Shown here: positions 1-63,399 of the stretch, piece after piece | How positions within the stretch are numbered: the stretch's first letter is position 1 | How the letters are laid out: each line of letters opens with the position of its first letter | Assembly (NCBI RefSeq): GCF_004010195.1 | Contig: NC_057725.1 | Coordinates: 30,165,871-30,229,870 of the forward strand | DNA: 64,000 nt | Direction: 5' to 3' | From: Chiloscyllium plagiosum | Taxonomy: Eukaryota | Translations under genes and position numbers: made by a program | Notes under the pieces: generated by a model | What the model was told of the DNA's origin: nothing | The model's database searches: none | What the model saw: the letters and a program-made list of their open reading frames with translations, nothing else

Positions 1-270
1 GTGCGGGGTTGTGGGACTATGAGGTTGGAGGTGGTGGATGGGAGATCCCCCGAGGTGATGAGGTTATGGACGGTCTGGGAGATAATGGTTTGTTTGTAGT
101 ACCTATCACATTTCCGACGCCCCTCCCCCAAGTCCCTCCTCCCTACCTTTTATCTTAGCCTGCTGGACAAACTTTCCTCATTCCTGAAGAAGGGCTTATG
201 CCCGAAACGTCGATTCTCCTGTTCCCTGGATGCTGCCTGACCTTCTGCGCTTTTCCAGCAACACATTTTC
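1..270. mobile_element. Penelope-like element fragment: inverted RT piece plus 3' terminal repeat with hammerhead core
   Basis: 1-92 on - reads QTIISQTVHNLITSGDLPSTTSNLIVPQPR (PLE RT N-terminal-like); 184-211 on + is CTGAAGA-A-GGGC-TTAT-GCCC-GAAAC-GTC followed by the GATGCTGCCTGACC..TTTTCCAGCA tail. Confidence 0.7.
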
Positions 271-969
271 GGCCCCAATACCATGCGCCCTAATTTTGCT
301 CACTAAATTAGGGCACAAGGTGCCACAGAAGAGGCTGCTGCATAAGATAAAGATGCATGGCATTACAGGCAAAATATTATTATGTATAGAAGATTGGTTG
401 ACTAACAGGAAGCAAAGAGTGGGAATAAATGAGTGTTACTCTGGTTGGCAAATCAGTAACTAGTGGTGTGCCTCAGGGATCAGTATTGCGACTGCAATTA
501 TTCACAATTTATATAGATGATTTGGAGTTGGGGACCACATGCAGTGTGTCAAAATTTGCAGATGACACTAAGCTGAGTGGCAGAGCAAAGTGTGCAGAGG
601 ACTGTGAAACGTTTGCAGAGGAACACCGATACATCGAGAGTGTGGGCAAAAGTCTGGCAGATAGAATATAATGTTAATAAATGTGAAGTCATCCATTTTG
701 GTAGGACTAACAGTAAAAAGGGCTATTACTTGAATGGTTAAAAAGTTGCAGCACTCTGCTGTGCAGAGGCACCTGGGTGTCCTTTTGCATGAATCAAAGG
801 GTTGGCATGAGGTACAAGTAATTAGGAAGGCAAATGGAATTTTGTCCTTCATTGCCAAAGGATTGAGTTTAAAAACAGGGAGGTGACGTTGGAGCTGTAC
901 AGGGTGCTGGTGAGGCCGTACCTGGAGAACTGCATGCAGTTTTGGTCTCTTTACTTGAGAAAGGATGTA

Positions 970-1630
970 CAGGGGAATCTCGATTATCCGAACGAGATGG
1001 GCGGGCACTATTTCGCTCGGATAATTGATTTTTCGGTTAATTGATTAAATGCCTTTCCTTGGGGGCTCGGAGTTTTTAAAGTCTGCTCCCAGTTTAGGAG
1101 ACTGCAGAAGCACACAGCGCATGAGGCCCCACCCCACCGCTCGCAAAACCTGTCCAAAACCATCCCCTAACCCAGTGCAACACCGCACCCCCGCCCACCC
1201 CCAACACCGTACACACCCGCCCCCTCTCCAGGGCAGCTGGACTGGACACCAACAAGACTGCTGCTGCAGCTGCTTTTGTGGGGTAAGTCTCCAAATAGCG
1301 CACGCACAGACAGACACACACAACTTTTTACTGCAACTTATTGACAGGTTCCACCTTTGCCCTGTATAGGACAATGTTGGAGAGATTATGTGGGGGGGGC
1401 GGGGGTGTTTAGGGTACACCCCTTGTAGAATTCCAGGGGAAGTGTGGGGGAAAGAGAGAGGGCGGGCAGACAGTCATTTGGAGACGGTGCCTGTTTAATC
1501 ACTGTAAACAAAAGACACGATCACTGTTGGAAACAAGTCTTTGATGTAATGTTTCTATCGGGACCTCGAGATATCCTTCGAATAATCCGATTTTTGGATA
1601 ATTGGTATTCAGATAATCGAGGTTCCTCTG
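970..1630. mobile_element. Non-autonomous Tc1/mariner (Tigger/pogo-like) MITE
   Basis: TA duplicated at 968-969 and 1631-1632; TIR CAGGGGAATCTCGATTATCCGAA vs rc CAGAGGAACCTCGATTATCTGAA; removing it restores the CR1 sequence aaggatgTActgg. Confidence 0.9.
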
Positions 1631-1821
1631 TACTGGAACTAGAGGGGGTACAGAGGAGGTTCACTAGGTTGAATCTGGAGTTGAGGGGATTAACTTATGA
1701 GGAGAGACTGTGTCGACTGGGATTACATTCATTGGAATTAAGAATTTGGGGGTGGGGGGAAAAAAAAAGTCTTATAGGAACATTTAAAATTATGAAGGGA
1801 ATATAGAAGATAGAAATAAAG

Positions 1822-2467
1822 AAGTCCTAATGGTCGTAGTAGTCTGGCTGTCAGTTCAGAAATGTTCTTGACGTATGGTAATGCGTCATGTCCTCATTCC
1901 GTTGTCTTTCCCTTAGGACTCATAACAGCACACAAACCAACAGCCACTCTCAGACAACAACTCACCAGGACAAAGGACCCGATACCCAACATGAGCAAAA
2001 CCAATGTAGTGTACAAAATCCCATGGAAGGACTGCACAAAACACTACAGGACAAACAGGAAGACAGCTAATGATCCGTATCCATGAACACCAACTAGCCA
2101 CGAAACGACACGACCAGCTATCCTTAGTAGCCCCACACGCAGATGACAAGCAACATGAATTCGACTGGGACAACACTACTATTATAGGACAAGCCAAACA
2201 GATAACAGCCAGGGAATTCCTGGAGGCATGTCACTCATGCACAGATTCTATCAACAAACACATCCGACCTGGACCCAATATACCAGCCACTGCAACGGAC
2301 AGTTGGAACTGATAACCGGAAGCGGCAGAGACAAACCACTATAAATGCTGGAGGAAACAACACAGAAGCGCTTCACAGGAGGCACCCAAACACTGAGGAT
2401 GTCACCTAGACAGGGGCGAAATGTCTGCAACACAAATTCCCGGCTCGGCGAACAGAACCACAACAAC
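1822..2467 (+). mobile_element. Penelope-like element 3' part (GIY-YIG endonuclease, frameshifted) with inverted 5' piece
   Basis: KTNVVYKIP.KDC.KHY.GQTGRQL.IRIHEH GIY-YIG motif; hammerhead-like core at 2393-2425; 1822-1883 reads LPYVKNISELTARLLRPLG on -. Confidence 0.85.
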
Positions 2468-2648: not shown

Positions 2649-2736
2649 ACAGGCAGGAGGCTGGAGGAACACAGCAAGCCAGGCAGCATCAGGAGGTGCA
2701 GAGGTCGACGCTCTGGGTATAATCATTCTTCAGACA
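2649..2736 (-). mobile_element. Short Penelope-type terminal-repeat insertion
   Basis: Perfect 16-bp TSD cctagttcttatgttg (2633-2648, 2737-2752) around a GATGCTGCCTGG..tail sequence. Confidence 0.75.
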
Positions 2737-3649
2737 CCTAGTTCTTATGTTGGCAGTATGTGTAAACTAACTTAATGGTACACCAACGGGGAGGGGAGCG
2801 AAAAATGGTTTCAGCTCTCCAGGTCATCAGTAAACCTACTGACTTGGCTTACTGCCCAAAACTAATGAGCAACCAACAGTGGAGATATAGCACTTCAGTT
2901 GAATGTCTTACGCAGCAGATTACAAGATTCTCTACCAATACAAGCCATCACCCTGAAAACGAGTCGTTTGTGGCCGTCGAGACCAAAACCAAATTACCTC
3001 ATACATCCTGACTTGTTCATATACAAATTAAACTTTCCATATTTCAATGTCAACTAACCACTCATCATTGAAAGCATAATCTTATCCTAGGGTTTTCAGG
3101 AATTTGGATGCTCATCTCCATAAAAAGCCATCTCTGCCAAACATCAGGCACACAGATAAAAACATATTTACACACCAAGAAAAGGGGTAATTCAAAGAGG
3201 TGTTTTGCATCTGTATGTAAAATGTACTACCACTTAAAAAGCACCCCTATTTAAAATTGGCCATTAAAAACCACTACCATGGATACAAAATAATTTTAAA
3301 TTTCTTAAGTGAATTCTTCAATTTTGTTGACTTAGCAGAGGAAGATAATGGGTCCTCTGCTAATTTATTGAAAAATAAAGGCAGGGGAAAAAAGGCCAAT
3401 TTCTTTAAATCTGACCATCCCAAGCAAACTCCAGAAAATAATTTTGCTTTATTTCAGTTATCCACATAGAAATTTTTAAGGGAACTGATTATTCACTGGC
3501 CATTCCACATCTCAAAAAAAAAATTAGGAAATTGGATCATACCCACCCACAGAAGAAAACTAACATTTAACTGTGTTTTAAAGGTCAGATACTATGGCCA
3601 TAAATATCAAAAGCAAAAAGTGAATGAGCACATTTCATTGAAGCATGCA

Positions 3650-5989: not shown

Positions 5990-6970
5990 ACAAGAGGGTT
6001 TCTTTTCAAACTGCAGGCCTGTGAGCAGCAGTGTGCCACAAGAATCACTGCTTTTTGTCATTTATATAAATGATTTGGATGTGAACATAGGAGGTATGGT
6101 TAGTACATTTCCAGGTGACACCAAAAGGAGGTTACCTCGGATTACAACGGGATCTTGATCAGATGGGCCAATGAGAACAGGAGAGGCTGATGGAGTTTAA
6201 TTTAGATAAATGCAAAGTGCTGCATTTTGGAAAGGCAAATTAGAGCAGAACTACACACTTAATGATAACATACTGGGGAGTGCTGCTGAACAAAGAGACC
6301 TTGGAGTGCAGGTTCATAGTTCCTTGAACTCTCAGGTAGATAGGATAGTGAAGGCGGTGTTTGGTATGTTTGCCTTTATTGGTCAGAGTAAAGAAGTTGG
6401 AGGGTCATGTTGCAGATGTACAGGACATTGGCTCGACCACTTTTGGAATACTGCGTGCAATTTGGTCTTCCTCCTATAGGAAGGATGTTGTGAAACTTTA
6501 AAGGGTTCAGAAAAGATTTCCAAAGATGTTGCCAGGGTTGGAGGGTTTGAGCTGTAGGGAGAGACTGAATAGGCTGGGGTTATTTTCCCTGGAGTATTGG
6601 AGGCTGAGGAGTGACCGCATAAAGGTTTATAAAATCATGAGGGACATGGACAGGGTAAATATATAAGGTCTTTTCCTTGGGGTTGGGAGTCCAAAACTAG
6701 ACTGCATAGGTTTAAGGTGAGAAGGGAAAGATATAAAAGGCACCTAAGGGGCAACTTTTTCACAGAGGGTGGTGCACGTTTGGAATGAGCTGCCTCCGAA
6801 AAAGTGATGGAGGCTGGTATGATTACAACATTTAAAAGGAAATAGGAAAGGTTTAGAGGGATTATGTGCCAAATTCTGGGAAATGGGACTAGATTTATAG
6901 AGGATATCTGGTCAACATGGACAAGTTGGATCGAAAGGTCTGTTTCCATATTGTATATCACTATGACGCT
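5990..6970 (+). mobile_element. CR1 LINE 3' fragment
   Basis: Degenerate GVPQ..FVIYINDL; AEQRDLGVQVH; 3' end gggtctgtttcca..tatatcactatgac. Confidence 0.85.
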
Positions 6971-13960: not shown

Positions 13961-15329
13961 TTCCATTGCAATTAATACAGGGACTGCTACAAAAATGGGG
14001 TCCCTAGCAAAATTAGTAGACCACAACAGGGAAAGCTTTTATCTTACAAGGTGGAAGGTTGCCACCACAAAAATAATTAACCTGAACTTGAAAACTGAAC
14101 TAATAAAACAAAACAACTGGGAGAATGCGTGGACATAAAATAACCGGTCCGAGTCTAAAATTAACTTTCAACATCACTACTAGCGTCCCAGCAATAAGCA
14201 GAATTGGGTTGAATTACATCAAAAGAAAAATCAATTGAGTTTTCAAACAGAGATGGTTACTTATTAAATTGACCCACAGTCACTGTTAAGGGTTTCTAGT
14301 CTATTAACTAGCTTATGCAGTCAATACTAAATGCTGCATATTAACCAAGCACAAAGAGAAATAGTGCAATAATGTAAAACATTTCAATCTTTTGCTCAGA
14401 ATGAAGCTGAGGCAGCAAACATTAACAGGTTGATAAACTGAGATAACTTTTATAAGTGCATAAACTTAATAAAGGAAAAGTTAGATAAGCATATAAAAGA
14501 GAAATAGACTTGTGAAATCTCACAAGGAACATCCAGACAATACAATCCTTTGTACTTTGAAACACCTAAAGGCAGAAGTATAATTAAAACTATTAGAGGC
14601 AGAATTTTAATCGATAGATTGATTATTCCAAACTGCCTTAAAATCCAAATGTCACGAATAACATCAACACAAACAGCATGCTGGCATGGAATGCAATGCA
14701 TTAATTAAAAAAGGACAGCATGTTAAATCACATTGAGAGCTTCTTCTATTCAAAATGTTGAATCTATAAATAAGGCATTATAGTACACAAATCATTCAGC
14801 AATAAACCCAATTAATTTGCTCATTAAGCTTCAAGGATACAAAAGTTTAATCAATATACAAAAGGGGTGAAATTTAGAAATTGAGAGATTTAATCAACAC
14901 ACAATGCACATTGGGAATTTCAGACTTGAAGCATAAAAATGTAAATAGTTTATCCTTATGCTAACCTCAAAAAACATTTGCGGTTGTCAAGATTTATTTG
15001 GAATGACAAATATGTTTGAACTTTAGCTACAATTTCAGTTTAACAGCAGGCTAAAGCAACAGTATGAGCATTAATCTCTCCAAAGGATGCATTTTCCAGC
15101 TAATATTAGAGAAAAATGTGATAGTTCCCCAAGAAAACAAAATCAGAAATTACTGGAGAAACTCAGCAAGTCTGACAGTATCCAGACAGAAAAGAGTTAA
15201 CATTTCAAGTCCAGTGACCCTTAGCATACAAGGTGTCATGAGGAGATGGCCGACTGGCTCCTTCCGACACAGACTGTATTTCAGATTTTGTATTAGCAAC
15301 ATCTTGCTTTAACTGTTAACTACAATCTA

Positions 15330-19020: not shown

Positions 19021-20571
19021 AGGGTTCACTGTCAGGAAGCATGACTTTGCAAATGGGGAAATGTGCAGTGGTGGTAGGAGTGGACGCAAGTTGTTGCGCA
19101 GAGGGAAATGCATCAATGGTGAATGGTAGCACTCCTGGTGCCAGGTTCTTTTACATTTTGGGTAATGACACTCAGCTGTGCCACACCAGACCCCAGCAGA
19201 CCCTCTAGTACTGGGCAAACAGAAATTGCCTCCAATTAAATACTGGGAAGGCCCATCTTACAAATACTGTTTTCGTGTCATCAACTTTGGTATTATGCCA
19301 TTAAATATTAATTCCCTCAAGCTTTCTCAGTAATTCTATGAGACCATGATGAAATTAATTGTAACCTCAAAGTGATATTCTCGCTCAATATCCTATAACA
19401 CTTTGCTTAATAAAAATTAACTCAAGTTTGCCTTAAAAATATTCAAGGAATCTCTTCCTGAAAGGATGGTGGAAGCAGAATTTCCAAGGCTCATGAACTT
19501 CAGAGGGAAAGTTTCACTTAATCCATGTTTAGGTGGGTTATCCCCTGATTTTTTTAAACAGAGACCCCTAATTCTACATTCTCTCATTAAAAAAAATACG
19601 TCCTCTCCACATTTACCCTATCAAGGCCCCTCGGCATTGTATTTCAATCAAGAACATAATAGAAATAGGAGCAGGAGTAAGCCACCTGGCCCGATGAGCC
19701 TGCTTTACTAAGTCAGTTTTACACTGCTAAACTCCAGCAAGATAAGCCTTTCCTAACAAAGCAACCATCCATTCCAGGTATTAGTCTGGTAACCCTCCTC
19801 TGAACTGTTTCCACATGTTTAGATCATTTGTAAAGTACCGAATGTTGTGTACAATATTTCAGATGCAATCTCACTAATGCCCTGTATAATTGAAGTATAA
19901 CCTCCCAACTTTTGCATTCAGTTTTCATTGTGTCCGGTGACTCTTCATCAGAACATTAGGTCAGTTCCGATGAAGAGAGTTGCCAGACTCAAAACATTAA
20001 CTATGCTTTCTTCCCACACATATTGCCAGACCTGCTAAGTTTCAACAGCAATTTCTGTGTTTGTTTCAGATCTCCAGCATCCACAGTTCTTTGTTTTACT
20101 TTATTTGTTTGAAAATAGCTCATGAAGCATCTTATGAATATAAAGTCATTTTCTAAATATAAACTACTGTTTTATTGTTTGTGTTAGTGGAGGGTGCAGT
20201 GTTGACTAACATACTGATATATAGAACATACTCTCATGGTCTCACGTTTAACAGATCATTCGTAAAAACTGCAGCACTTTGTTCCTACTGCAATAAAGTT
20301 TTGATCAATCCTTGAAGTAGAGCTTCAAACCTACAGACATGATGATAAGCCACGATAGCACATAATGGAATATGAATTGTATAATTTACTACATTTATCA
20401 ATTTTGGAATTTGGATTTCAATATAGATGCAGGTGCGTGTTAGTTTCTTTTGTGAAAGGTTTAAACAGGTCAGAGTATTATTCTGAAATAGTGGTTTCAA
20501 TCCAATGTTTTGTCAAATTTAGTGTTAATGAGAAAATGTTTATATTAATAGGTTTTAAAAAGCAGAGTAAA

Positions 20572-21027: not shown

Positions 21028-21674
21028 CAAAGTGTTCAGTAAAAACATGTTTAGCAACCCTCAGAAAACGAGGGCACTGCACAAGGGACAGAATGATACA
21101 CTGTCTGCAGGTGGGAGATAATCATTTGGATACTATGGAAGGTGAACTTCCTTTAAACTACTGAGCTATTGTTTTTGATAAATTATTTTTATTATTGAGT
21201 AATGAGTTGGTTAGTAATACTAACATCTCAATTTATTTCCACTCTCCCCTGTTGAAATATTTCACGGGTTGCTCCTGTTAAAGTTATTTTTGTTTGAGTT
21301 GTTTGCTAATCAGCAATTAACAAATGTGAAAACTACCTCAATGTAATTTGCATATTGGGATGATTTCTCTCAAATAAAAGCAATAATTGTATTAAAAGTA
21401 CAGGGAACAAGCAGAAGTCCAAAAATAAATCACATCATCGGAAATCTTCATTAAGGTACCTTGCAATAATCTTAAAATCTGTAAGAACTGTAGGTGCTGT
21501 AAATCAGCAACTAAAAGGAAAGATCACAACCCAAAATGTTAACTCTGATTCTCTCAACAGATGCAGCCAGACATGCTGAACTTATCCAACAATTTCTGTT
21601 TTTGTGTATGCAGGAATCTTTATGGTTAACTTCTGAAAACTTTCTCCAGTTATACAATCTTTCAAGGCCCTTCA

Positions 21675-37771: not shown

Positions 37772-39149
37772 AAAGTGATGTAATTGATCACAGCTCGAGT
37801 TCACAATGTCATGAATATTTGATCTGCTTTGTCACAAAGAAGATTAAAGTTTAAATTATGATGAAATATCATCAACCTGAAACATTAACTCTGTTTCTCT
37901 CCACAGATGGTGCCTGATCTGCTGCGGTTTCCAATCGTTTTTTGGTTTTTATTACAAATTTCCAGTATCTACAGTGGTTTAGTTTTTGTTAAAGTTTCTA
38001 TTATTCCTTTGAATCCAAACAGTCAGAATGGAGCAATGCATCTCTTGAAACTAATGGGGGATTTGTGTCACCTTTCAAGCTGGCCAGTCCCTCGGACAAT
38101 TCTTCTTTCACTGCAAGAAGCCCTGAGCTTATATGAAGTATTTTTCTATAGTGATTAATCCGACGGACATGCAGCTCAGTAGAGTACCAATTCATATTGG
38201 CAAAGAGTGTCAGAAGGCTGCAATGAGATTCACATGAAATAATTTGAAACAGTGAGACTCCATTTTATAATCATCAACTTAAGTTAAAAACAGCCTTTAA
38301 TTCACTTTCTGACACATTTTTGAAATGTTTGCAGAGAATATGGAGTTTATACAATTGAATGTTTCATATTTACTTCAATGTTCCAGTACTTTATTTTGTA
38401 TTTGCGAAAGCATACTGGATATTGTACTGATTGCCAGCCACAGTGAGATAGTGTGATGGAGTGATTGTGTCACAGGCAGTCAGATCTAGATGTTGTTGGG
38501 ATGTTACATAATAGTGCACGTGGTATTCCAATTGTACAATGGTTGGCTGATGTTCTTGTTTAAAGTTTAGTGAAAATGAACTGTGGTAGCTGTATTTTGT
38601 TTTCAACGAAGGAGAAACTTGGAATAGTGGCAGTATTCAGTGAGTAGTACGACACTACTGAGTCAGAAGGGCAAGGGTTCAAGCTCCACTACACAGATGT
38701 AAGTAAAAACCCATGCAGACATTCCAGAGGTACTACTGAAGGTATACTGACAGCTGAAGTCAACAGTTTGGAGGCTGCTGTTGTAATTAGAGTTATTTCT
38801 ATAGCATTTCTTAATATATTTAACTTTGCTTGAATGCTTTATTTTACTTTTAAAAAATCAAAGCATCTCCATCAATTATTCCTTTGTAGTGTGACTTGAA
38901 CTAACAACCTTCTGATTTCTTTGTGAGAACTCCATTCCATATACCACAGTATATGTAACAAACAAAATTTCAAAGCAACAGCAATTAAATTATTTAAAAT
39001 TACATTCAGCATCCGGCTTATTTCCTATTAATTAAAAATTGTTTCCAAATAGATGTCACATCTTTTAAGATTGTAACACAATTGCATGACACAGAACACT
39101 AAATTCATGCAAGTATATCTACAAAAGATCCAAGTTGATCAAATTTGAA

Positions 39150-42100
39150 GGAGGCTAAAGGAGCAATGAGTAAACCTTAAACCAGCACCACCTCTCTGGG
39201 TTAAAGGATTCCAAAGATTCAGTCTTTTAAGTAAGGAAATAAAATTCTCATCCACCCCTGATAAAATAATACACTCTGGACTCATCCACAAAAGGAAACA
39301 TCCTTTCTGTGTCCACCTTGACAAGACCATTCAGGATCTCGTAAACTTTAATGAAGTTGCACATCACTCTTCTAACACTAGTGGAAATAAGCCTAACCTG
39401 CTCAAACTATCCACAAATGACAACTCACTCATTCTAGGTATCAATCCAGGAAGCTTTTAAAGCCTTCAACACATGTGTATCATTTATTAAACAAAGAGAC
39501 CAAAACCGCAAATATTATTTGAGATGTTGTCTCACCAATATCTTGTTTAGTTGAAGCATAACATCCATATCTTTATGTTCAATATCTCTTGCAATAAAGG
39601 ATAGCATTCCAGTACACTTCCTGAATACATGCTATACCACATAATATTTTGTGACTAGTACTGCATCCCTCTTCCCCATGGGATTCCACAATTGTTCTTC
39701 ATTTAAGGAATATTGTACTTTTCCATTCTTCCTGCCACAACTGCAAATTATACTCCATCTGTCAGATTGCTGCCCATTCATTCAACATATCTATGTCAAT
39801 CATAGTATACTTTCCTACCTATCTTTGAGCCATCTGCGAATTGAGCCACTATGACTTTAGTCCCCTCATCTAAATCTTCGTAAATTGTAAAAGGTTGAGG
39901 GCCTAGCAAAGGCCCCTGTGATTCTCTGCTCATCACATCCTGCCAATCAGGAAAATGCCCATTTATGCATCCTGATTACTGCTAGCTTACCAATCTGATC
40001 TACACCATGAGCTTTTATTTCCGACAATATCCATTGATGCAGGACCTGATTAAACCTATTCTGGAAATCCAAGTACAGTATGTCTACAGGCTGTCTTTCA
40101 TCCACAACAAAACTCCTTCAAGGAATAAATTTATGAAACTATAATTTCACTTTCACAAAACCATACTGATACTTCCTCATTATTTTGAGTTTTTCTATAT
40201 GCCCAGGTACAACCTCAAACACCTCACCAATGACAGACATAAAACTAACTGGCCTATTGTTTTCTGCTTCCATTCTTTCTTGAATAGAGGGATTACATTT
40301 GCCACTTTCTATCCTGATCGATCCTTTCTTGAACGTGGTGAATTTTTTAAAAAAATTTGATACCATAACATCTACTTCTTCATTAGCCACATCTCTTAAG
40401 ACCCTAGAATGAAATCCATCAAGATTTGGAAACTTGCCAACTTGCAGCTCTATCAGATTGCTTCTTGCAGCTTCTTTAATGATTGTAATTTCCATACATT
40501 CCTCTCCTTTTTACCTGCAAATTTACAGCATTTACTGGTATGTTGTTTGTATCATCTGTGGTGAAGATGGAAGCAATATATTTTTCATTTCATCTGCTAT
40601 TTCCTTATTGTTGACTATTAAGTTCCCATTCTCAGTCTAGAGTGAACTGACACTCACTTTATTTACCTCTTACTCTTAATACCTTTATTACATTGCTGGC
40701 TAGCTTCCTCTCTTATTCTCATTTTTTCCTTCAAATTAATCTTTAAGTTATTATCTGTCATTCTTCATACTCTGACCATTCATCTGACTTCTCATTGATG
40801 TTTGGTTATATGCTTTTTCCTCCATTTTGATGCTTTCCTCAATTTTCCTTAAGGTCGATCCTTAAAAATGTTTCCTTTTTTTGTAGGAATATACACATTA
40901 AATATTCTAAAGTATCTTCTTAAGTGGCAGTCACTGCATCTCTATTGATCTATCCCTTAGGCAAGTATGTCAATTCTCTTCAGCAAGTTCAATATTAACG
41001 CCGATAGAGTTGCCCTTATTTAAAAGACTAGACTTTGAATAAATCTTCTCCTGTCAAATGGGATATAAAATTCAATCACTTTATGGTTGCTGTTGCCTAG
41101 AAGTGCCTAAATCTGAGGTCATTTATTAATTCTGTTCTGAAGAAGAGTCACTGGGACCTGAAACATTGACTCTACTTTGTCTCCACAGATGTTGCCAGAC
41201 CTGTTGACATTCTCCAGCAATTTCCAGCATCCGCGGTTCTTTGTTTCTTCATAATTAATTAATCCTGTGCCATTACACAATACCAAGTCTAGTGTAACCT
41301 GTTCTTTGGTTGGTTCTAGAATATGTTGCTCGAAGAAACTATCTCAGGCACTCTGAGCTCCTCATCATAGCTACTACTGTCATTCTGAGTTCTCCAATTT
41401 ATATGCAGATTAAAGTCACCCATGATTAATGATGTCTCTTTGTCACAAGAACTCAATATTTGTTCTTGTATACTTTGTCCCACTGTGTTTACTGTAGGGG
41501 CCACTAATGACTGATTCTCCCTTCTATTTCTCATCCTCACCCAAACTGATTCAACATGCTGATCCCTTGAACCAAGTTCATTTGTAACCATTGCATAAAT
41601 AAAATCTAGTTTTCCACTCTCCTAGATGTCATTTACATCTCTGTAGTCAGGGCCCATTCCTTGTCATTATCCAACCATATCTCCATAATAGCTATCAGAT
41701 CATACTTATATACTTTGTTCAATATCAATTCATTTATAAACACTATGCGCATTCAGATACAGAGACCTTAGTTTTACATTTTTGTTATCTTTGTAAATTC
41801 TCTTTTGCTTGTGTCTTCTTGAGTTTTATCTGTCTGTCCCTTGCTGCTATTTTTTGAACTTCATTTTCCATTTAATTCTTCTCCTCCTGTATAAACCTTT
41901 GTACATGACATTTTTCCACATTTGATCCTTTGTCCCAACTATTTAGATTAAAATCATCTCTATTTCTCTAATTTATATAGTTTGCAAAAACACTGGTCCC
42001 AGCACAGTTTCAGAGCAGACCGTCCCAATGGTTTAAACCCACATTTTCTGCAGTACTGGTGTCAGTACCCATAAGCTGAACCCATCTCTCCCACACCATT

Positions 42101-42899: not shown

Positions 42900-43035
42900 A
42901 AGAGTATGATTTGGAGATCCTGGTGTTGGACTGGAGTGTACAAAGTTAAAAATCACACAACACCAGGTTATAGTCCAACTGGTTTAATTGGAAGCACTTC
43001 AGCTTTCGGAGCATCGCTCCTTCATCAGGTGATAG
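42900..43035 (-). mobile_element. Penelope-type terminal repeat of a second family, with hammerhead core
   Basis: rc: CACCTGATGAAGGAGCGATGCTCCGAAAGCT..CAATTAAACCAGTTGGACTATAACCTGGTGTTGTGTGATTTTTAAC. Confidence 0.7.
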
Positions 43036-45800: not shown

Positions 45801-46134
45801 ATATTTATTCATTTAATGGCGTCATTCTTCCAGAGCACAAGGAGCAAGATAATTCTATAGAATAATTGAATCTCTAAGATCCCATCCAATCCGAGAAAAG
45901 GAACTTGCATTTGAAAATAAATTGGAAATGACAATATTTCTTAGTAGAGTTGCGTAATAGTGGAAAAAAACATTTGTTCTCCTCTCTGGAGTTTTGTGTT
46001 CTGTCTGGGCACTGTTCCTCAGGAAGGATTTTAACTCTTTCTATTGAATGCGGGCATTTATGACAAAAGCTGCATTTTTTTGCTAATCGCTCTTGAACTC
46101 AATGGCTTGTTAAACTAAAGCACAATTAAGAGGA

Positions 46135-46512
46135 GGTCGAGAGTGTGGTGCTGGAAAAGCACAGCTGGTCAGGCAGCATCAGAGCAGCAGGAGAATTGAT
46201 GTTTCGGGCATAAGCCCTTCATCAGGAATGAGGCTTGTGGGTCGGGCCAACTCGGCCCATCCTCCGGACCCGTCCATCACTGCCCCCTCTGACTATCACC
46301 TTCTACCTCACGTATCGCTTTCCCAGCTACCTCCCCCCAACCCCACACTCCTTCATTTATCTCTCAGCCCGAACCCACAAGCCTCATTCCTGATGAAGGG
46401 CTTATGCCCGAAACATCGATTCTCCTGCTCCTCGGATGCTGCCTGACCTGCTGTGCTATTCCAGCACCACACTCTCGACTCTGATTTCAAGCATCTGCAG
46501 TCCTCACTTTCT
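46135..46512. mobile_element. Fold-back Penelope-type terminal-repeat insertion with two hammerhead cores
   Basis: Arms 46136-46247 and 46367-46479 are reverse complements; TSD cacaattaagagga / cacagttaagagga (13/14). Confidence 0.85.
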
Positions 46513-47699
46513 CACAGTTAAGAGGAAGCCATGTTAATGAGATGTAGAAGACACATTGATGGATTTCCATCCCTAAATGGCATTAGTGAACCAAATGGGT
46601 CTTTATGACAATTGATGATTGCATCGTGGTCACCATTGTGGAGGTTAGTTTTCTGTTCCAGATTTATTAATTAAATTTAATTTCCACTAGCTGCTGTTGT
46701 GGGATTTTATCACCTGTGCCCAAAACATTATCCTGGCCATCTGACAGTACAATTACACCACTGTCTCCCCCACTATATTGGCCTTGAAGTAAGTTTATAC
46801 AGATTCATCGGAATGATAACTAGGACATAGAAGGTTCAAGTATGAAATGAGGTTTCCTAGGTTAGTACTGACTAAGTATAGAAAATTAAGGAACTCCTTT
46901 GGCACAGTGTCAGTGAGCCTATAGTCAGGAGGCCTGGGTTTCAGTCCCATCTGTTCCAAGGTGATATCATCAGAATTTGAGGGATGATTAGATTGAAGTC
47001 TTTAAGATGATAAAGGGATCGAACAAACCAAAAATTGTTTCCTCTGGTGATGAGTCTGGAACAAAGTGGCTTTTCTTTGTCTAGAGAGCTGGTTACAACC
47101 TGAATTTGTCAAACAATTTCCTTTTGTAAAACTATGTTGATTCTATATTATGCTATGATTTTCTATTGCTTTGTTAAACATCCTCAACAATAGAGTCCAG
47201 CACACACCCTGTGACCAATGTTGCATTTCAGGCCTATAGTTTTCTCATCTTCCTTTCATTAATAATGCTGTTACATTTACTAATTTGTATCTTGCTGAAC
47301 TGTTCTGGAATTATGGAATTTTGGAAAATCATAACCAATGCATCCACTATCTCTGCACTCACCTCTTTTAGTACTCTAGGATGAAGGTCATCAGATCTTG
47401 GAATGTCATCTTTTAGTCCCTTATATTTCTCCTAATACTTTTTCTGCTGATATTAATTAACTCAGAATCCTTATTAACCTCCTTTTCTGGTATGCAACTT
47501 GTGTTTACTGCTGTGAAGATGGACAAAATATTTGTTGACTATCTTTTAAACATTTCCACAATCAAGGTAGATACGATTGTTTTTGGTCAAGAGTATTACA
47601 AGTCATTGAACCAAGTGGAGATGCAGTGCATATCTTCAACCATCTAATTAAACAACTGAGGGAGTACACTGAAGGTTCACTAGACTTGTTCCTGGGATG

Positions 47700-50110
47700 G
47701 TCAGACTAGCAAGGTTAGATCTCATGGAATACAGGGAGAACTCGCCATTTGGATACAGAAATGGCTTGAAGGTAGAAGCCAGAGGGTGGTGGTGGAGGAT
47801 TGCCTTTCAGACTGGAGGCCTGTGACCAGTGGTGTGCCACAAACATTGGTGCTGGGTCCACTACTTTTCATCATTTATATAAATGACTCAGATCTGAACA
47901 TAGGAGGTATAGATAGTATGTTTGCAGATTACACCAAAATTGGAGGTGTAGTGAACAGAGAAGAAGGTTACCTCAGAGTACCTGAGGAGCTAAGGAGTGG
48001 CAAATGGAGTTTAATTTAGATAAATGTGAGGTGCTACATTTTGGAAAGGCAAATCAGGGCAGGACTTACACACTTAATGGTAAGGTCCTGAGGAGTGTTG
48101 CTGAACAAAGAGACCTTGGAGTACACATTCATAGTTCATAGAAATAGAACATTACAGCGCAGCATATGCTCTTCGGGCCCTGATGTTGCACCGACCTGTG
48201 GAACCAGTCTGAAGCCCATCTATCCTACTCAATTCCATTATCATCTATCTGTTTATCCAGTGACTATTCAAATGCCCTTAAAATTGGCAAGTCTACGACT
48301 GTTGCAGGCAGGGCATTCCACACCTCGACTACTCTGAGTAAAGAGACTACCTCTGAAATCTGTCCTATATTTATCACCCCTCAATTTAAAGCTAAGTCCC
48401 CTTGTGCTAGCCATCACCATCTGAGGAAAAAGGCTCTCACAGTCCACCCTATCTGATTATCTTATATGCCTCAATTAAGTCACCTCTCAACCTTTTCTCT
48501 ACAACAAAATCAGCCTCAAGTCCCTCAGTCTTTCCTCATAAGACCTTCCCTCCATATCAGGCAACATCCTAGTAAATCACATTTGATCCCTTTCTAAAGC
48601 TTCCAGATCGTTCCTATAATGCAGTGACCAGAACTGTATGCAATGCTCCAAGTGAGGCCGCACCACAGTTTTGCACAGCTGCAACACGACGTTGTGGCTT
48701 CGAAACTCAATTCTTCTACCAATAAAAGCTAACACACCGTATGCCTTCTTAACAACCTATCAGCATGGGTGGTAACTTTCAGGGATCCACGTACATGGAC
48801 ACCAAGATCTCTCTGGTCATCCACGCTACCAAGAATCTTACCATTAGCCTAGTACCCTGCATTCCTGTTACTCCTTCCAAAGTGAATCACCTCACACTTT
48901 TCCACATTAAACTCAATTCTCCACCTCTCAGCCCAGTTCTGGAGCTAATCTATGTTCCTCGGTAACCTGCAACATCTTTCGGCACTATCCACAACTCCAC
49001 CGACCTTAGTGTCATCTGCAAATCCACCAATCCATCCTTCTACACCCTCATTCATAAAAATGATGACAACAGCGGACCCAAAACAGATCCCTGTGGCACA
49101 CCACTAGCAACCAAATTCCAGTTGAACATTTCCCATCAATCACCATCCTCTATCCTCCTTCAGCGAGCCAGTTTGATCCAAAACACTAAATCACCCTCAA
49201 TCCCATCTCTCCGTATTTTGTGTGGTACCCTACCGTGGGGAACCCTATCAAACGCCCCACTAAAATCCATATACACTACATCAACCACTTTAGTGAACAG
49301 TGGAGGAGGTTACTTCAGATCAGAACAGAATCTTGATCAGATGGACCAATAGGCTGAGGAGTGGCAGATGAAATTAAGATAAATATGAGATGCTGTGTTT
49401 TGGAAAGGCAGGATTTATACACTTAATGGTAAGGTCCTGTGGAGTGTTGCTGAACAAAGAGACCTTGGAGTGCACGTTCATAGTTGCAGCTTGATTGGAT
49501 AGCTAAGAAGATGTTTGATAAGCTTGCCTTTATCGGTCAGTGTATTGAATATAGGAGTTCGGAGGTCATGTTATGGCTGTACAGGGCATTGGTTAGGCCA
49601 CTTTTGGAATACTGTACAATTTTTGTCTCCCTGCTAAAGGAAGGATGTTGTGAAACTTGAAATGGTTCAGAAAACCTTTACAAGGATGTTGGAGGATTTG
49701 AGTTATAGGGAGAGGCTGAATATGCTAGGGCTATTTTCCCTGGAGCGTCAGAGGCTAAGAGGTGACATTATAGAGATTTATAAAATCATGAGGAGCATGG
49801 AAAGGTGAATAGTCAAGGTCTTTTCCCCAGAGTGGGGAATCCAAAAAGGGGGCATAGGTTTAAGGTGAGAGGAATAAGATTTAAAAGAGACCCAAGGGGC
49901 AACATTTTCTTGCAGAGGGTGGTGTGTGTCTGGAACAAACTTCCAGAAGTAGTGGTGGAAGCTGGTACAACAACAACGTTTAAAAGGTGTCTGGATGAGT
50001 ATATGAATAGGAAGGGTTTAGAGGAAAATGGGTCACATGCTGGCAAATGGGACTAGATTAACTTAGGATGTCTAGTCGGCATGGACGAGTTGGATCAAAA
50101 GGTCTATTTC
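47700..50110. mobile_element. Nested CR1 cluster: + copies (47700-48135, 49290-50110) flanking a - copy (48136-49290)
   Basis: WRPVTSGVPQ..FADYTKIGG; RGHRFKVRG..WNKLPE; internal rc CR1 3' end. Confidence 0.85.
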
Positions 50111-50134
50111 CAACTCTAGACTTTTTTTTTATGG

Positions 50135-50815: not shown

Positions 50816-53800
50816 GTTATAGAATGTAGCACGGTACAGACCCTTCGGCCCTCGATGCTGTGCCACCCTTTTATCCTATACTAAAATCAGACTAATCTAC
50901 ATACCCTTCATTGTTCCAACTTCCATGTGCCTATCGAAAAGTTACTTAAATGTCCCTAATGTATCTGACTCTACTACCTCTACTCTCCGAGTAAAGAACC
51001 TACCTCTGACAACCTCTCCCCCCCCCAAACCTTCCTCCAATTACATTAAAATTATGCCCCCTCATGATAGACATTTCTGCCATGGGAAAAAGTCTCTGGC
51101 TACCCACTCTATATCTGTGCCTGCCAACATCTTATACACCTCTATCAAGTCACCTCTCATCCTTCTTTGCTCCAATGAGAAAAGTCCTAGTTCCCTCAAA
51201 CTTTCTTTATAAGACATCCCGTCCAGTCCAGGCATTATCCTGGTAAATCTCCTCTCTAAAGCTTCCACATCTTTCCTATAACGAGACAACCAGAATTGAA
51301 CACAATACTCCAAGTGTGATCTTACCAGAGATTTATAGAGCTGCAGCATAACCTTGCGGCTCTTAAAACTCAATCCCCCTGCTAATGAAAGCCAACACAC
51401 TATAAGCCTTCTTAACAATCCTATCAACCTGGGGGGCAACTTTGAGGGATCTATGGACATGGATTCCAAGATCCCTCTATTCCTCCACACTGCCAAGAAC
51501 CCTGCCTTTAACCCTGTATTCTGCATTCAAATTCGATCTTCTAAAGTGAATCACTTCATACTTTTCCAGGTTGATCTCCATCTGCCACTTTTCAGTCCAG
51601 TTCTGCATCCTGCCAATGTTTCGTTGCAACCTACCAAAACCCTTCAATACTACCCACAATTCCACCAACATTCGCATCATCAGCAAACTCACCAACCCGA
51701 CCATTCCATTTCCTCATCCAAGTCATCTATAAAAATCACAAAGAACAGAGGTCCCAGTATAGGTCCCTGCAGAACACCACCGGCCACCAAGCTCCAGGCT
51801 AAATACTTTTCATCTACCACCACCCTCTGTTTTCTATGGGCCAGCCAACTCTGTATCCAGACAGACAGGTTTCTTGTATCCCATGCCTCCTTACTTTCTG
51901 AATGAGGCTACCATGGGAAACCTTATCAAACGCATCGCTAAAATCCATATACACCACATCCACTGCTCTATCTTCATCAACGTGTTTTGTCAGATCCTCA
52001 AAGAATTGAATAAAGTTTGTGAGACATGACCTGTCCCTCACAAAGCCATGCTCACTATCTCTGTAATCAAACTATGGTTTTCCAAGTAATCATAAATTCT
52101 GTCTCTCAGAAGCCTCTTCAATACCTTGAGCACCACTGACTGGTCTGTAATTCCCAGGATTATCTCTCTTCCCTTTCTTGAACAAGGGAACAAGATTTGC
52201 CAGCCTCCAATCATCTGGTACTACTCCAGTGGACAGTGAGGATGCAAAGATCATTGCCAAAGGCACAACAATCTCTTCCCTCGCTTCCTGTGGTATTCTT
52301 TACTTTATTAATTCACAAGATGAGGGCATCTCTGGCTAGGCCAGCATTCATTGCCCAGAGAGCAGTTAAGAGTCAACCACATTGCTGTGGGTCTGGATTC
52401 ACATGTAGACCAGACTGGATAAGGATGGCAGTTTACTTCCTTAAAGGACATTAGTGAACCAGATGGGTTTTTTTTCCTGACAATTGATTCATTGTTATTA
52501 TTAGTCTTAATTCCAAGTATTTATTGAATTCAAATTCCATCATCTGCCATGGTGGGATTCAAACTTGGGTCCCCACAACCTTACCTGGATTAATAGTCTA
52601 TCAATAATACCACTAGACCATCGCCTAGCCAAGTAACCTAGGGTTTATCCCATCAGGCCCAGGGAATTTATTTATACTTACGTTTTTCAAAATATTCAGC
52701 ACATCCTCCTTCCTAACATCAGCCTGTTCTTGCATATCAGTCTGTTTCATGCTGTCCTCAAAAATGTCAAGGTCCCTCTCAGTAGTGAATATTGAAGCAA
52801 AGGATTCATTAAGGACCTGCTCTACTTCCTCCAACTCCAGGTGCAAGTTCCCTCCAACTCCAGGTGCAATTTCCCTCCACTATTCCTAACCAGCTCTACC
52901 CTCACATTGGGTATTCTCTTCTTCCTGACATAAATCTAAAACACCTGAGGGTTTTTCTTGATCCTACCTTCTAAAGATTTCTCATACCTCCTTCTAGCTC
53001 TCCTAAGTCCATTCTTCAGTTCGTTCCTGGCCACCTTGTAACCCTCTAAAACCCTGTCTGATCCTTGCCTCTTTAACCTAAAGTAAGCTTTCTTCTTCCT
53101 TTTGACTAGATGTTCCACATCTCTTGTCACCCAAGGTTCTTTCAACCTACCATCCCTTCCTTGCTTCAGTGGGACAAACCTGTCCAGCACTATCAGTAGG
53201 TTTTAGCGAGTTTTGAGATTTGTAGCTCAGGTCGGAGTTTTGGATGTAGGTTTGCTTGCTGAGCTGAAAAGTTCATTTCCAGACGTTTCATTACCCTACT
53301 AGGTAATGTCTTCATGGGCCTCAGGCAAAGCAATGCTGAAAATTCCTGCTTTCAATTTATATGTTTGAGATTCTTTGGTTTGATGATGTCATTTCCTGTG
53401 GTGAAGTCACTTCCGGTTCCTTTTCTCAGGGGGTGGTAGATGGAGTGTAACTCAATGTGTTTGTTGAGAGTGTTCCGGTTGGAATGCCATGCTTCTAGGA
53501 ATTCTCATGCATATCTTCATTTGGCTTGTCCTAGGATGGATGTGTTGTCCCAGTCGAAGTGGTGTCCTTCCTTATCTGTATGTAAGGATACTTGAGAGAG
53601 GGTCATGTCTTTCTGTGGCTAGTTGGTGCTCATGTATCCTGATGGCTAGTTTTCTACCTGTTTCTCCAATGTAGTGTTTGTTACAGTCTTTGCGCAGTAT
53701 TTTGTAAATGATATTAGTTTTGCTCATTGTCTGTATAGGGTCTTTCAAGTTCATTAGCTGCTATTTTAGTGTGTTGGTGGGTATGTGGGCTACCATGATG

Positions 53801-54230
53801 TCAAGGGGTCTGAGTAGTCTGGCAGTCATTTCCGAGATGTCTTTGACATAGGGAAGAGTGGCTAGGGTTTCTAGACGTTTTTTGTCTGCTTGTTTGCAGA
53901 CACATTGAGTTAGACCCCATCTAACACTCCCTGAGAAAAAGGACAGGAAGTGACTTCACCACAGGAAATAACATCACCACAGGAAATTACAGCACCAATC
54001 CAAAGAAACCCAAACATATAAATAGAAGGCAGGAATTTTCAGCATTGCTTCGCCTGAGGCCCACTGAAAATGTTACCTAGTAGGATAACGAAATGTCCGG
54101 AAATGAACCTTCCAGCTCAGCAAGCAAACCTACACCCAAAACTATCAGCAGGTGCTTCCTAAACAACCTCTACATTTCTGTCGTGCATTTCCCTGAGAAT
54201 ATTTGTTCCCAATTTTATGGTTCCTGACCA
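50815..54230 (-). mobile_element. CR1 LINE ORF2 remnant interrupted by a SINE-like insert (~52295-52625) and a Penelope element
   Basis: RSCLTNFIQFFE..AVDVVYMDFSDAFDKV; LQLYKSLVRSHLEYCVQFW; PGPDGINPRLL. Confidence 0.9.
53202..54140 (-). mobile_element. Penelope-like element (GIY-YIG) with inverted terminal copy
   Basis: KTNIIYKI..DCNKHYIGETGRKLAIRIHEH; ~53235-53460 is rc of ~53897-54140; TSD actatcagtaggt / actatcagcaggt (53189-53201, 54141-54153). Confidence 0.9.
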
Positions 54231-54264
54231 TAAAAATAGTCGCAGGTAGACAGGATAATAAAGG

Positions 54265-54600
54265 CTGAAGTGGGTACTGCAGATGCTGGAAATCAGAGTC
54301 TAGAGTGGTGCTGGAAAAGCACAGAAAGTAAGCAGCATCAGAGGAGCAGGAAAATCGACATTTTGGGCAAAAGCCCTTCATCAGGAATGAAGGCAGGGGA
54401 CCTCCAGGGTGGAGAGATAAATGGGAGACGGTGGGGCTGGGGAAAAGGTAGCCAAGAGTACAATAGGTGGATGGAAGTGGGGATGATGGTGATAGGTCAG
54501 AGAGGAGGATGGAGCAGATAAGTGGGAAGATTGGCAGGTAGGACAGTCTTGAGGATGGTGCTGAGCTGGAAGGTTGAAAGTGGGGTAAGGTGGGAGGAGG
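54265..54600 (-). mobile_element. Penelope-type 3' terminal region
   Basis: rc CATTCCTGATGAAGGGCTTTTGCCC..GATGCTGC..TTTTCCAGCACCAC..CAGCATCTGCAG. Confidence 0.75.
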
Positions 54601-54602
54601 GG

Positions 54603-55456
54603 TTCCTTTATTGGTCAGAGCATTGAGTATCGGAGTTGGGAGGTTATGTTGTGCCTGTACAGGACATTGGTTAGGCCACTTTTGGAATATTGTGTGCACT
54701 TCTGATCTCCCTCCAATTGGAAGGATGTTGTGAAACTTGAAAGGGTTCAGAAAAGATTTGCAAGGATGTTGCCAAGATTGGAGGGTTTGGCCTATTGGAA
54801 GAGGCTGACTAGGCTGGGGCTGTTTTCCCTGGAACGTCGGAGGCTGAACGGTGACCTTACAGAGGTTTATAAAATCACGAGGGGCATGGAGAGGGTAAAT
54901 AGACAAGATCTTTGACGAGAAAGTGAGGTCTGCAGATGCTGGAGATCAGAGCTGAAAATGTGTTGCTGGAAAAGCGCAGCAGGTCAGGCAGCATCCAGGG
55001 AACAGGAGAATCGACGTTTCGGGCATAAGCACTTCTTCAGGTTTCCTGAAGGGCTTATGCCCGAAACGTCGATTCTCCTGTTCCCTGGATGCTGCCTGAC
55101 CTGCTGCGCTTTTCCAGCAACACATTTTCAGCTCTAAATATACAAGATCCTTGCCCTGGGATGGGGGGTGGGGAGTCCAGAATTAGAGGCATAGGTTTAG
55201 GGTGAGAGGGGAAAAATTTAAAGGGTCAACTTTTTCATGCAGAGGGTGATGTGTGTATGGAATGAGCTGCCAGAGGAAGTGGTGGAGGCTGGTACAATTA
55301 CAACATTTGAAAGGCAGCTGGATGGGTATATGAATAGGAAGGGTTGAGAGGGATATGGGCCAATGTGCTAGCAAATGGTATTAGATTAGGTCAGAATATC
55401 TGGTTAGCATGACGAGTTGGACCAAAGGCTGTTTCCATGTTGTACATCTCTATGAC
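54603..55456 (+). mobile_element. CR1 3' fragment interrupted by a fold-back insertion
   Basis: KLERVQKRFARMLP..LGLFSLERRRLNGDL; CR1 tail ctctatgact. Confidence 0.88.
54915..55134. mobile_element. 220-bp fold-back Penelope-type insertion
   Basis: Arms 54948-55041 and 55045-55135 are near-perfect reverse complements; TSD taaatagacaagatctttg / taaatatacaagatccttg (17/19). Confidence 0.9.
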
Positions 55457-57485
55457 TAACAAATATTGTGTGTTTGGGAAACAGGACCTGTTTCCAATGA
55501 GAGGTGATCTCACTGAAATCAATAAAATACTTGATTTTTTTTTTAAAAACTCAAAAATGTGCAGAATCTTTGATATACCCTGCCTAGAGAGCTGTGGAAT
55601 TTCAGACAGCGTATAAGTTGAGAGATTTCTAAATACCAATGATATAAAGGATCATGAGGGAACCTTTTTGTTTAAAACAGTGGTTTGTTTGTGAAATGAA
55701 CTGCCAGGGAAAGTGGTGGATGCAGGTACAGTTTCAAGACATTTGGATCAGCTGATTGGAGGATTTGTCATACCTATCAAGGTGTCAGCTGCAGTGTATT
55801 TGACATTTGGCGAGGTTCATGAGTAGAAAAGGTTTGGAAGGATATGGACCAAATGCAACATGGTTGGCATTGAGTGGATATTGAATGGCACAGTACACTG
55901 AATGGGCTGAAGGACCTACTCCTGCTTTTATGTATTCATAGTTTGGCTCAAGGTAATGAATGGTCCACTGTTCCTACGTTAGAGCAGGGAAATGGGGTTG
56001 ACTAGGTTTCATGGAGAGCAAGCATGAACATGATGGGCCAAATAATCTCCTACTTTAACTGACCATGTCACAGCCAATCCATACCTCAACTCTATTTACC
56101 CGACCAGATCAGGTTAAGGTCAGATGTATCTCACTGAAGTAGAATTTGCAATCTCTTGTCAACTTCACCCCACCTCTGAAGTGCAAAAATATCTAGTCCT
56201 ACAGACAGACAGCCAGCCTGGTGAACGAGATGAGGTATTTGCTTCAAACGGCTTTATTTAAATTAACTCAAACTGCATGACACAGTAAATAATCATCATC
56301 CGCTTTAACATGTAGAGGGTACTCGATTTTCTCATTACCAGTAACTTGGTTTACAATGAAGGGTCATTCCATGGCTGTGACAAGTTTGCTGCAACTTCGG
56401 CACCAGAGTGACTCTGGACTACTCTGTGCCGGGTTTCTTCTGATTAGAAGCCAGTAGAAAAACAAGCTACCTCTCCTAACAAAAGCAAAATACTGCAAAT
56501 GCAGGAAGAAGAGTCATACTGTACTTGAAATGTTCACTGTTTCTCCCTCCACAGATGCTGCCAGGCTTTCCCCAGCACTTGTTACTTGCCCTTAAAAGGT
56601 ACTTCATTAATTATACACTTTGGACCATCCAGAGGTACCTTTTGGAAGTGTAGTCATGGTTGAAATGTGACAGCCAACATATGCCTAGTAAGTTACCACA
56701 AATATCAATGCAGTAATTGCCAGATCACTTTCTTTTTAAAATATTGTTGATTGAGGCATAAACATTAGTCAGATAGCCAAGGAGAACCTCCCTGCTTTTC
56801 TTTTACATAGTTTTTACATCTATCCCATGGGATAGACAGGGCTTTGGTTTACCATTTACAAAAACAGCACTTTAGACAATGTGATACTCCGTCAGTACTA
56901 TGCTGGAGTATCAGCTAACATTATGGAACTTGAACTACAACCTTCTGAATCAGGAGATGATTGTGCTATCTACTGAGCCATGTTTAACAGTAATAGAATA
57001 CAGAACAAGGAGTCTCAAACACTGACCACAAGCGTGGCTGAATACCCAGGAAAATAGCAAGGGTCTAAGAATGCTAGATCAAAATTAAGTTATTGTTGAT
57101 AATGAATTTCCATGGCTTATTTGCATCTGACATTGTGGTGGAGTTTGATGTGATTTTGGTTACGGTGTTTCCCTAAGACACAAATCCATATTGAACTGGT
57201 TCAAATGAACTGCCTGTTACATTTCCTGCACTGCAGTCACGAGGAATAAAGCCAATGGAACCAAACATTACTAGATAATGTAACAATGAGACAGAGGTGA
57301 TTGTCCAACACATTTTGTATGTAAAGAATAAGTTAATCAAAATGGTACCAATTTCCACCAATAACACACAAAATTCTTAATGCTTCCAAGCCAATGAAAA
57401 AACCTTGATAATGAAACAAAACTTCACTTGACAGCTTGATGCCATCGGGTCACCAACAGCACATGCAATAGTTTTTAAACTTAAA

Positions 57486-63354: not shown

Positions 63355-63399
63355 TATGTGGAGTAGGCACCAAATTCAGAAATAGACCCACAAAGCTCA

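Follow-up and report, generated by a model that had tools for sequence, protein, structure and literature searches.

Do the short hammerhead-like motifs that recur in a 64,000-nucleotide stretch of the Chiloscyllium plagiosum genome (contig NC_057725.1, positions 30,165,871 to 30,229,870, analysed as a whole and called the window here) belong to retroelements, and do they still act as ribozymes? The original prediction, made from the letters of the window, had assigned them to the terminal repeats of at least four families of Penelope-type elements (A to D). Our analysis upholds this assignment. The motifs are almost certainly minimal type-I hammerhead ribozymes (min-HHRs) that originate from the terminal repeats (pLTRs) of Penelope-like elements, with linkage to open reading frames (ORFs) at A, B1, B2 and C and weakest for D. 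It is probable that the pLTR hammerheads of at least four such families have been scattered as short, likely inactive copies.

Hammerhead motifs in the window and in the genome

All 13 sites listed in the original prediction exist, at or within 1-2 bases of the positions given there; the copy placed at 54356-54383 is real and lies at 54357-54384. A search with profiles made from natural copies recovers 19 family members in the window, nine of A, six of D, three of B and one of C. This amounts to about one per 3.3 kb, so that the predicted density of about one per 5 kb is reached or exceeded. One listed site, the short inverted arm of a D pair at 19923-19951 on the minus strand, lies outside these 19. 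The full set of core, stem II, Watson-Crick palindrome and stem I is retained in only one of the 13 listed copies (184-211), and the remaining ones show loss of G12, C3, U4, G8, H17 or the palindrome. A strict pattern matches the window four times, compared with a shuffle mean of 0.03, and none of 100 shuffles reaches four. An Rfam scan of the window gives no hammerhead model match at E<=10, and its weak microRNA matches correspond to the palindrome at 54948-55135.

Abundance was evaluated on 100 stretches of 10 kb, which were placed at round coordinates on the 43 largest contigs and together hold 964 kb of sequence other than N. This sample contains 341 copies, 174 of family A, 71 of D, 64 of C, 19 of B and 13 of a fifth family, F. 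Eighty copies pass the strict descriptor, compared with 0-2 in five shuffles, and 51 of the 80 also have a Watson-Crick palindrome and stem I; the 'D' search pattern of this descriptor also caught 13 family F copies, so its D and F counts need separating. Exact searches of the whole genome return 79,864 matches to one family A pattern and 16,283 to one family C pattern, with none for the reversed controls, which gives at least 96,147 intact-looking motifs per genome from two patterns. Extrapolation from the 341 copies in 964 kb leads to an estimate of about 1.2 million stubs genome-wide. A random genome sample of 600 kb contains 58 minimal motifs, compared with 0-5 in five shuffles. Chance matches to a short RNA pattern might be suspected because the core has just 10-11 fixed bases and loose patterns do pick up background. 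This origin is ruled out by the strict matches set against the shuffles, by the exact matches set against the empty reversed searches, and by the linkage of the motifs to Penelope-type ORFs, and its probability is negligible.

Linkage to Penelope-like coding sequence

Homology among family A copies stops sharply 3' of the motif and raggedly 5' of it, and the sequence 5' of the motif translates to Penelope-type reverse transcriptase (RT) and GIY-YIG motifs. RT and GIY-YIG stand in one natural frame ending beside the hammerhead at loci L094 (736 amino acids, aa) and L100 (510 aa). The A frames match Pfam RVT_1 with E values of 1.7e-6 and 8.6e-6 and GIY-YIG with 3e-4, each just below the curated cut-off. 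The L100 frame has no relative in PDB, and a genome search with the Pfam GIY-YIG model gave one weak match and was uninformative. A Penelope-type ORF lies upstream on the same strand at 20/29 loci of A, 8/29 of B1, 10/28 of B2, 5/17 of C and 7/13 of F. GIY-YIG sequence is found 5' of the hammerhead in B and C, including remnants immediately 5' of it in both window B insertions, and an A-like ORF is found 5' in D and F. For family D, protein evidence places ORF, ORF end and hammerhead in that order at L138, and DNA evidence places ORF-end and hammerhead segments in order at four further loci; by these sequences D appears to have the weakest tie to Penelope-type GIY-YIG coding among the four families.

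A CX2-5CxxC linker between RT and the endonuclease (EN), a mark of Neptune and Nematis according to Craig et al. (2021, PMC8557442), is present in the A and C frames and was not seen in the B remnant. By this linker, A and C appear Neptune-like, though the linker would also fit Nematis; B appears Penelope/Poseidon-like, and three of the four families would be Neptune-like. The fifth family, F (L146-L159, also L053, L058, L081, L082 and L099), is absent from the window. It shows a U3:A8 core swap, a 4-pair stem I, TATAAA at -35 to -37 and, in the 7/13 loci mentioned above, a Neptune-like ORF. In family C (L129, L119 and L123), the ORF end and the hammerhead are separated by a long 3' untranslated region that contains a CA-rich microsatellite.

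Selection on the fold between families and decay within them

An extra base after A9 is present in 56 of the 58 motifs of the 600-kb sample, for which the descriptor allowed 0 or 1. The original prediction had recognized this base and noted its occurrence in a viroid hammerhead; beyond viroids, it has been published as a characteristic feature of the min-HHRs of Penelope-like elements (Cervera and De la Pena 2014, PMC4209133). A palindromic 15.2-16.2 region without a helix III loop is present in 46/58 motifs, most exceptions being CpG decay. For stem III, the palindrome reads ACGU in A, B, D and F and AGCU in C, and the 15.2:16.2 pair is C:G in A and B1 and G:C in C (40/42). The family triplets at the cut site are GUC (A, B), CUA (C) and GUU (D); AUC, also proposed as a cleavage triplet, is instead a product of CpG decay of GUC that disrupts the palindrome.

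Helix I is short, with 3-4 pairs of family-specific letters. Its first two positions are paired in 86-97% of copies, and pairing is mostly gone by positions 5-6. The first pair (2.1:1.1) differs by family, with C:G found in A and C, A:U in B, and U:A in D and F; the third pair of family A is mostly a U-U mismatch (79/118). In family F, U3:A8 replaces the C3:G8 tertiary pair in 15/15 copies seen. In nearly every copy the partner of G10.1 is C or U, although this was largely demanded by the search patterns. The stem covariation check envisaged in the original prediction thus finds compensatory changes between families, in stem I and at 15.2:16.2. Together with the U3:A8 core variant, these compensatory stems argue from sequence comparison that the fold is under selection between families.

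Within families, the core decays almost like its surroundings. Non-CpG core mismatches in the 600-kb sample amount to 28/854 (3.3%) in A, 17/370 (4.6%) in C and 25/282 (8.9%) in D, compared with 199/3848 (5.2%), 131/1884 (7.0%) and 129/1192 (10.8%) in the invariant flank (p 0.02, 0.11 and 0.39, respectively); over all flank columns the mismatch is 9.8%, 8.9% and 17.2%. CpG columns, G12 included, are lost in 24-44% of cases, and G12 is gone in 21/95 A copies. The core is intact in 40/69 A, 14/31 C and 6/23 D copies. These values suggest that copies decay nearly neutrally after insertion. The proposal that a core no more conserved than its flanks would speak against a ribozyme was mis-specified, since dead copies are expected to behave in this way; because core and flank decay nearly alike, the test cannot separate a fossil ribozyme from no ribozyme, and the informative comparison is that between families.

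Three further observations concern the motif and its surroundings. Nine of 31 B2 copies (L203-L229; window 54064) carry A8 but lack the corresponding change at position 3, owing either to query bias or to the spread of a subfamily with a broken core. A block 3' of the hammerhead is common to A, D and F (window 184-290) and contains splice-acceptor-like pyrimidine tracts that end in AG, for which no matching joint occurs among the RNA joints listed. In family A, an ATG where loop II ends also opens a short hydrophobic frame.

Ends and architecture of the stubs

Most copies are stubs of 90-130 bases whose 5' end lies 0-12 bases before the core. Counted in bases before C3, the 5' ends of solo copies fall at 0-12 in 38/89 A, 11/30 C and 35/58 D copies, and the next 118 bases hold only 11, 7 and 2. 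The commonest D stub start is -4 (11/58), where stem I pairing stops, and the best arm also ends at 0-12 in 26/36 A pairs and 12/14 C pairs. Solo starts within 1 base of the cut site number three in A, none in C and at most two in D. Starts at the cut site are therefore rare, indicating that the copied RNA was uncut, and an origin of the copies at the cut site was rejected on the same counts.

Promoter-like boxes are found at -38 (C, 16/42), -35 to -37 (F), -48 (B2, 10/31) and -53 (B1, 23/30). The shortest B1 5' ends lie 23, 23, 27, 29 and 33 bases out (5/28), with a further one, from an inverted copy, at 7; in B2 the shortest 5' ends lie 5-16 bases out (5/26). Families A and D have TCATTC and TCAGTT, in which the letter A falls at -4 and which resemble the initiator consensus. 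From these positions we infer, with moderate confidence, that the 5' pile-up marks the transcription start. The 3' ends form two clusters about 35 bases apart, at approximately +75-94 and +110-130. They match the tail published for the anole Poseidon element, which has two internal reverse-transcription starts, a 30-40-base tail and an uncleaved template (Frangieh et al. 2024, PMC11167929).

The opposite-strand copies of the original prediction are real, and three such pairs are single insertions with target duplications of 8-9 bases (46126-46526, 53189-54148 and 54903-55149) rather than separate copies. Such head-to-head pairs make up 36 of 128 A events (about 28%) and 14 of 46 C events and account for about half of the A and C copies. 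Their junction sits at the core, and the near-palindromic sequence around the A core is visible at the junctions. The pairs would fold into long hairpins burying the motif. Copies in the window are solo or head-to-head, with no head-to-tail tandem units; the search for such arrays covered the window alone. The copies thus show 5' truncation, an inverted 5' arm, an optional 30-40-base tail and a target duplication, the features of EN-bearing (EN+) Penelope-like elements.

According to the model that we favour, the ribozyme would be kept by selection in the source elements and, as the literature suggests, would cleave solely in dimers formed through the ACGU or AGCU palindrome, probably assisted by protein. 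RNA synthesis would begin about 30 bases 3' of the pLTR promoter box, just 5' of stem I. A short stretch of the uncleaved RNA would serve as template, with reverse transcription starting internally 80-130 bases downstream and proceeding back to the first base of the RNA, and most genomic copies would be its complete complementary DNA. The head-to-head arm may be added by fold-back or template switching at that first base, and the copies, once inserted, would decay nearly neutrally.

RNA reads and the poly(A) site of family C

RNA run X20 represents a single poly(A) sample from single cells, and the reads examined make up about 2% of it; its species label is that of the best-matching DNA dataset, in which only 51% of the query words were found. 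For family A, reads cover the hammerhead about 20 times as deeply as the ORF and come from both strands, a pattern that read-through would produce. For family C, 2,447 reads aligned and are strongly one-stranded, and 703 of them are poly(A)-tailed, 399 ending at position 3405 of L050 and 304 at 3402. The tails begin 12-15 bases 3' of ATTAAA (L050 3385-3390), about 30 bases past the predicted cut site. The hexamer ATTAAA or AATAAA is present in 41/48 family C copies, and a GU-rich tract also lies 3' of the hammerhead. A genomic A run at the tail site has no exact match genome-wide and occurs in none of 40 sampled copies, indicating that the tails were added to RNA. A further 170 family C reads carry foreign letters before position -2 and fit host transcripts entering stubs; the output gives no link between these reads and the tails. 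The read depth of family C shows no step across the cut site, which says little about cleavage because short cut products are lost in the X20 library. No reads of run X21 aligned, and no RNA dataset was found listed as containing the family A stretch.

Features of the window

The copies and associated features are collected in the table. Of the palindromic insertion at 54903-55149, the minus arm (55013-55040) has a stem II mismatch and the plus arm lacks part of the core. The near-perfect 88-base inverted repeat at 54948-55135 is expected to yield double-stranded RNA on transcription.

Positions of hammerhead copies and associated features in the window
Feature	Position	Strand	Basis
Family A (Neptune-like) ORF fragment, inverted, beside first hammerhead	3-98	-	tblastn, 84% to L094 aa 73-104
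Family A min-HHR, sole fully intact window copy, stem I 3/4 pairs	184-211	+	
Broken Penelope/Poseidon-like GIY-YIG coding remnant, immediately 5' of B1 min-HHR	1901-2263	+	translation, tblastn
Family B1 min-HHR, damaged (C15.2 to U, one stem I pair gone); stub end ~2467	2393-2425	+	
Decayed A-like stub, absent from original prediction	2660-2738	-	nhmmer E 3e-7
Family D stub without 5' core, absent from original prediction	15140-15222	-	profile search
Family D head-to-head pair: minus arm 19923-19951, plus arm from 19968 (U4 to C, G12 to A)	19923-20060		
Decayed family D stub, absent from original prediction	21517-21602	+	profile search
Family A stub starting 3' of hammerhead	24949-25034	+	
Decayed family A stub without 5' core, absent from original prediction	30541-30624	+	profile search
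Decayed family D stub	37856-37948	+	
Family D min-HHR, stem II mismatch and broken palindrome	41137-41167	+	
ATTAAA poly(A) hexamer of family C stub, then GU-rich tract; use seen for the family, not this copy	42983-42988	-	
Family C min-HHR, AGCU-type stem III, damaged cleavage triplet (H17 = G); stub to ~42906	43000-43028	-	
Family A inverted insertion, 9-base target duplication; min-HHRs 46198-46225 (-) and 46390-46417 (+), both G16.2 to A	46126-46526		
Family B2 inverted insertion, 8-base target duplication; min-HHRs 53282-53315 (-, C3 to A) and 54064-54097 (+, G8 to A)	53189-54148		
Broken thumb and GIY-YIG coding remnant within B2 insertion, no zinc-finger linker seen	53401-53901	-	translation
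Family A min-HHR, G12 to A and C15.2 to U	54357-54384	-	
Family A palindromic insertion, 88-base arms 99% complementary, 8-base target duplication	54903-55149		
Decayed family D stub	56505-56586	+	

The window also contains several 3' fragments of a long interspersed nuclear element (LINE) family at 6100-6970, 21600-22450, 49300-50130, 54600-55440 and 58800-59270, one of which is split by the family A palindrome; RT matches of this family lie at 21630, 33594 and 47684. Pfam searches of 45 window ORFs return only three RT fragments and one endonuclease fragment, all of LINE type. A 527-codon open frame at 36188-37771 on the plus strand, with a lysine-rich start, is probably a large host exon and has no match in Pfam or ESM Atlas. 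At 62755-63440, a low-complexity repeat flanks a 500-base N gap, with open frames on both strands.

Alternative explanations

Several results weigh against the interpretation of the stubs as start-to-tail copies of pLTR transcripts from ribozyme-bearing elements. No pile of read ends is seen at the start or the cut site in A or C, and the library type would miss both. None of the 20 ORF-bearing loci holds a full-length tandem element, all being 5'-truncated or gapped. A panel-free check flags 12/38 A, 3/11 C and 3/35 D solo calls as possibly belonging to another subfamily or containing a missed inversion, and the D reference panel for 5' ends consists of only three copies. Family A has TTTATC or CTTATC at -34 to -37 and not TATA, and the shift of the B starts is based on the 5/28 (B1) and 5/26 (B2) copies given above, most B copies being long. 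In family A, conservation is slightly higher in the core than in the flank, for which seed bias may account. The catalytic dimer is less stable than alternative folds in 5/5 natural copies by a computation that leaves out tertiary contacts; for window 184 the values are -9.5 and -24.1 kcal/mol. This instability agrees with the weak or protein-assisted cleavage described in PMC4209133 and PMC11167929.

The main rival to the start-site reading is that the 5' pile-up comes from the integration machinery, with an endonuclease or fold-back resolving copies where the hammerhead has its leading edge, perhaps with antisense RNA or DNA as template. The large share of head-to-head pairs, joined at the core, among A and C copies, and the near-palindrome around the A core seen at these junctions, would suit such a process. 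The anole enzyme prefers ATT and cuts within its own pLTR (PMC11167929), and family A has ATT at -4; antisense self-priming has also been proposed for such palindromes (PMC3846280). This process leaves unexplained the solo B1 ends, which lie about 20 bases beyond stem I and 30 bases past the TATA box, and the loss of stem I pairing after 3-4 bases at the commonest D start. We regard it as rather unlikely, and the transcription start remains our preferred explanation of the pile-up.

Activity of the dispersed copies is a separate matter. At least 96,147 exact intact motifs, the 51 strict motifs with stem I in 964 kb and the read depth over the A hammerhead region on both strands could be taken to mean that a sizeable share of intact copies are active ribozymes cutting host pre-mRNAs with a second copy in cis or trans. 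We consider this improbable, since the core decays along with its flank, the catalytic dimer is disfavoured in all five folds, and published min-HHR monomers are inactive and dimers weak (PMC4209133). The depth of family C likewise shows no step at the cut site, with the reservation on short products given above, and the window pairs are head-to-head, so that a transcript carries the motif together with its own antisense. Most copies are damaged or locked in head-to-head hairpins, and the majority of the dispersed copies are very probably inactive. The uniform short length and discrete ends of the stubs also recall an independent non-autonomous family, resembling a short interspersed nuclear element or a retrozyme and copied via its own short or circular RNA, and retrozymes have been proposed to derive from pLTRs (bioRxiv 10.64898/2026.07.22.740005). 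The stubs, however, share variants with and grade into ORF-bearing copies of the same subfamily, have no upstream promoter box and form no tandem arrays in the window, and their starts precede the core, unlike those of a circular-RNA unit starting at the cut site. We therefore give an independent family very little credence.

Relation to known systems

Cervera and De la Pena (PMC4209133) described the minimal motif, its extra base, palindrome and U3-A8 variant, multiple families and solo dispersal in 2014. The class and its structural quirks are thus published, and there is nothing new in the motif itself, which is ordinary as a motif discovery. The metazoan Penelope min-HHRs of that work share with the present ones the absence of a helix III loop, the palindromic 15.2-16.2, the extra base between 9 and 10.1, G10.1-C11.1 and a short helix I; there, too, a genome holds many families, present mostly as solo copies with some close opposite-strand pairs, and the motifs were found in fish Neptune and Poseidon elements. 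Counts were about 4,000 in coelacanth and 9,000 in Xenopus with another descriptor, compared with at least 96,147 by two exact patterns here. The portions of that work examined do not mention cartilaginous fish, a 5' end pile-up or a poly(A) site.

PAc, the green anole Poseidon element (PMC11167929), also has its hammerhead near the pLTR end, together with the internal starts and tail mentioned above; uncleaved RNA is its insertion template and no RNA reads end at the cut site, likewise here. It differs in that its ORF start and protein-assisted cleavage were demonstrated in vitro, and in that three of the four families here appear Neptune-like. Insertions of EN+ Penelope elements (Arkhipova et al. 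2013, PMC3846280; PMC8557442) show the same 5' truncation, adjacent inverted pLTR, tail and target duplications (8-10 bases), with putative TATA and initiator in the pLTR; here, by contrast, truncation is focused where the hammerhead has its leading edge, and most copies are tiny stubs. Non-LTR retrozymes, whose survey took in one chondrichthyan genome (bioRxiv 10.64898/2026.07.22.740005), have type-I hammerheads related to those of pLTRs and form head-to-tail tandem arrays, in contrast to the solo or head-to-head stubs here. A literature search covering few subscription papers found nothing on such elements in a shark genome, on a 5' pile-up at the hammerhead or on a used pLTR poly(A) site.

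Significance

The scale is unusual, given the number of intact motifs and the extrapolated number of stubs. The stubs form a fossil record bearing on the role of hammerheads in Penelope-like elements; they point to the copying of an RNA that was uncut and likely started at stem I, which speaks against cleavage defining the template. More tentatively, and with more doubt than confidence, the pLTR may resemble a compact retroviral LTR, with a promoter box, a start at the first base of stem I, the hammerhead and, in family C, a used poly(A) site. RNAs started in the pLTR might bypass this site, stay uncut and become about 1 million strong-stop-like stubs, the ribozyme might act as a 5' decapping switch, and tens of thousands of C stubs might supply host poly(A) sites. 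Should C stubs indeed terminate host transcripts, poly(A) sites would have in them a large source that is so far unannotated.

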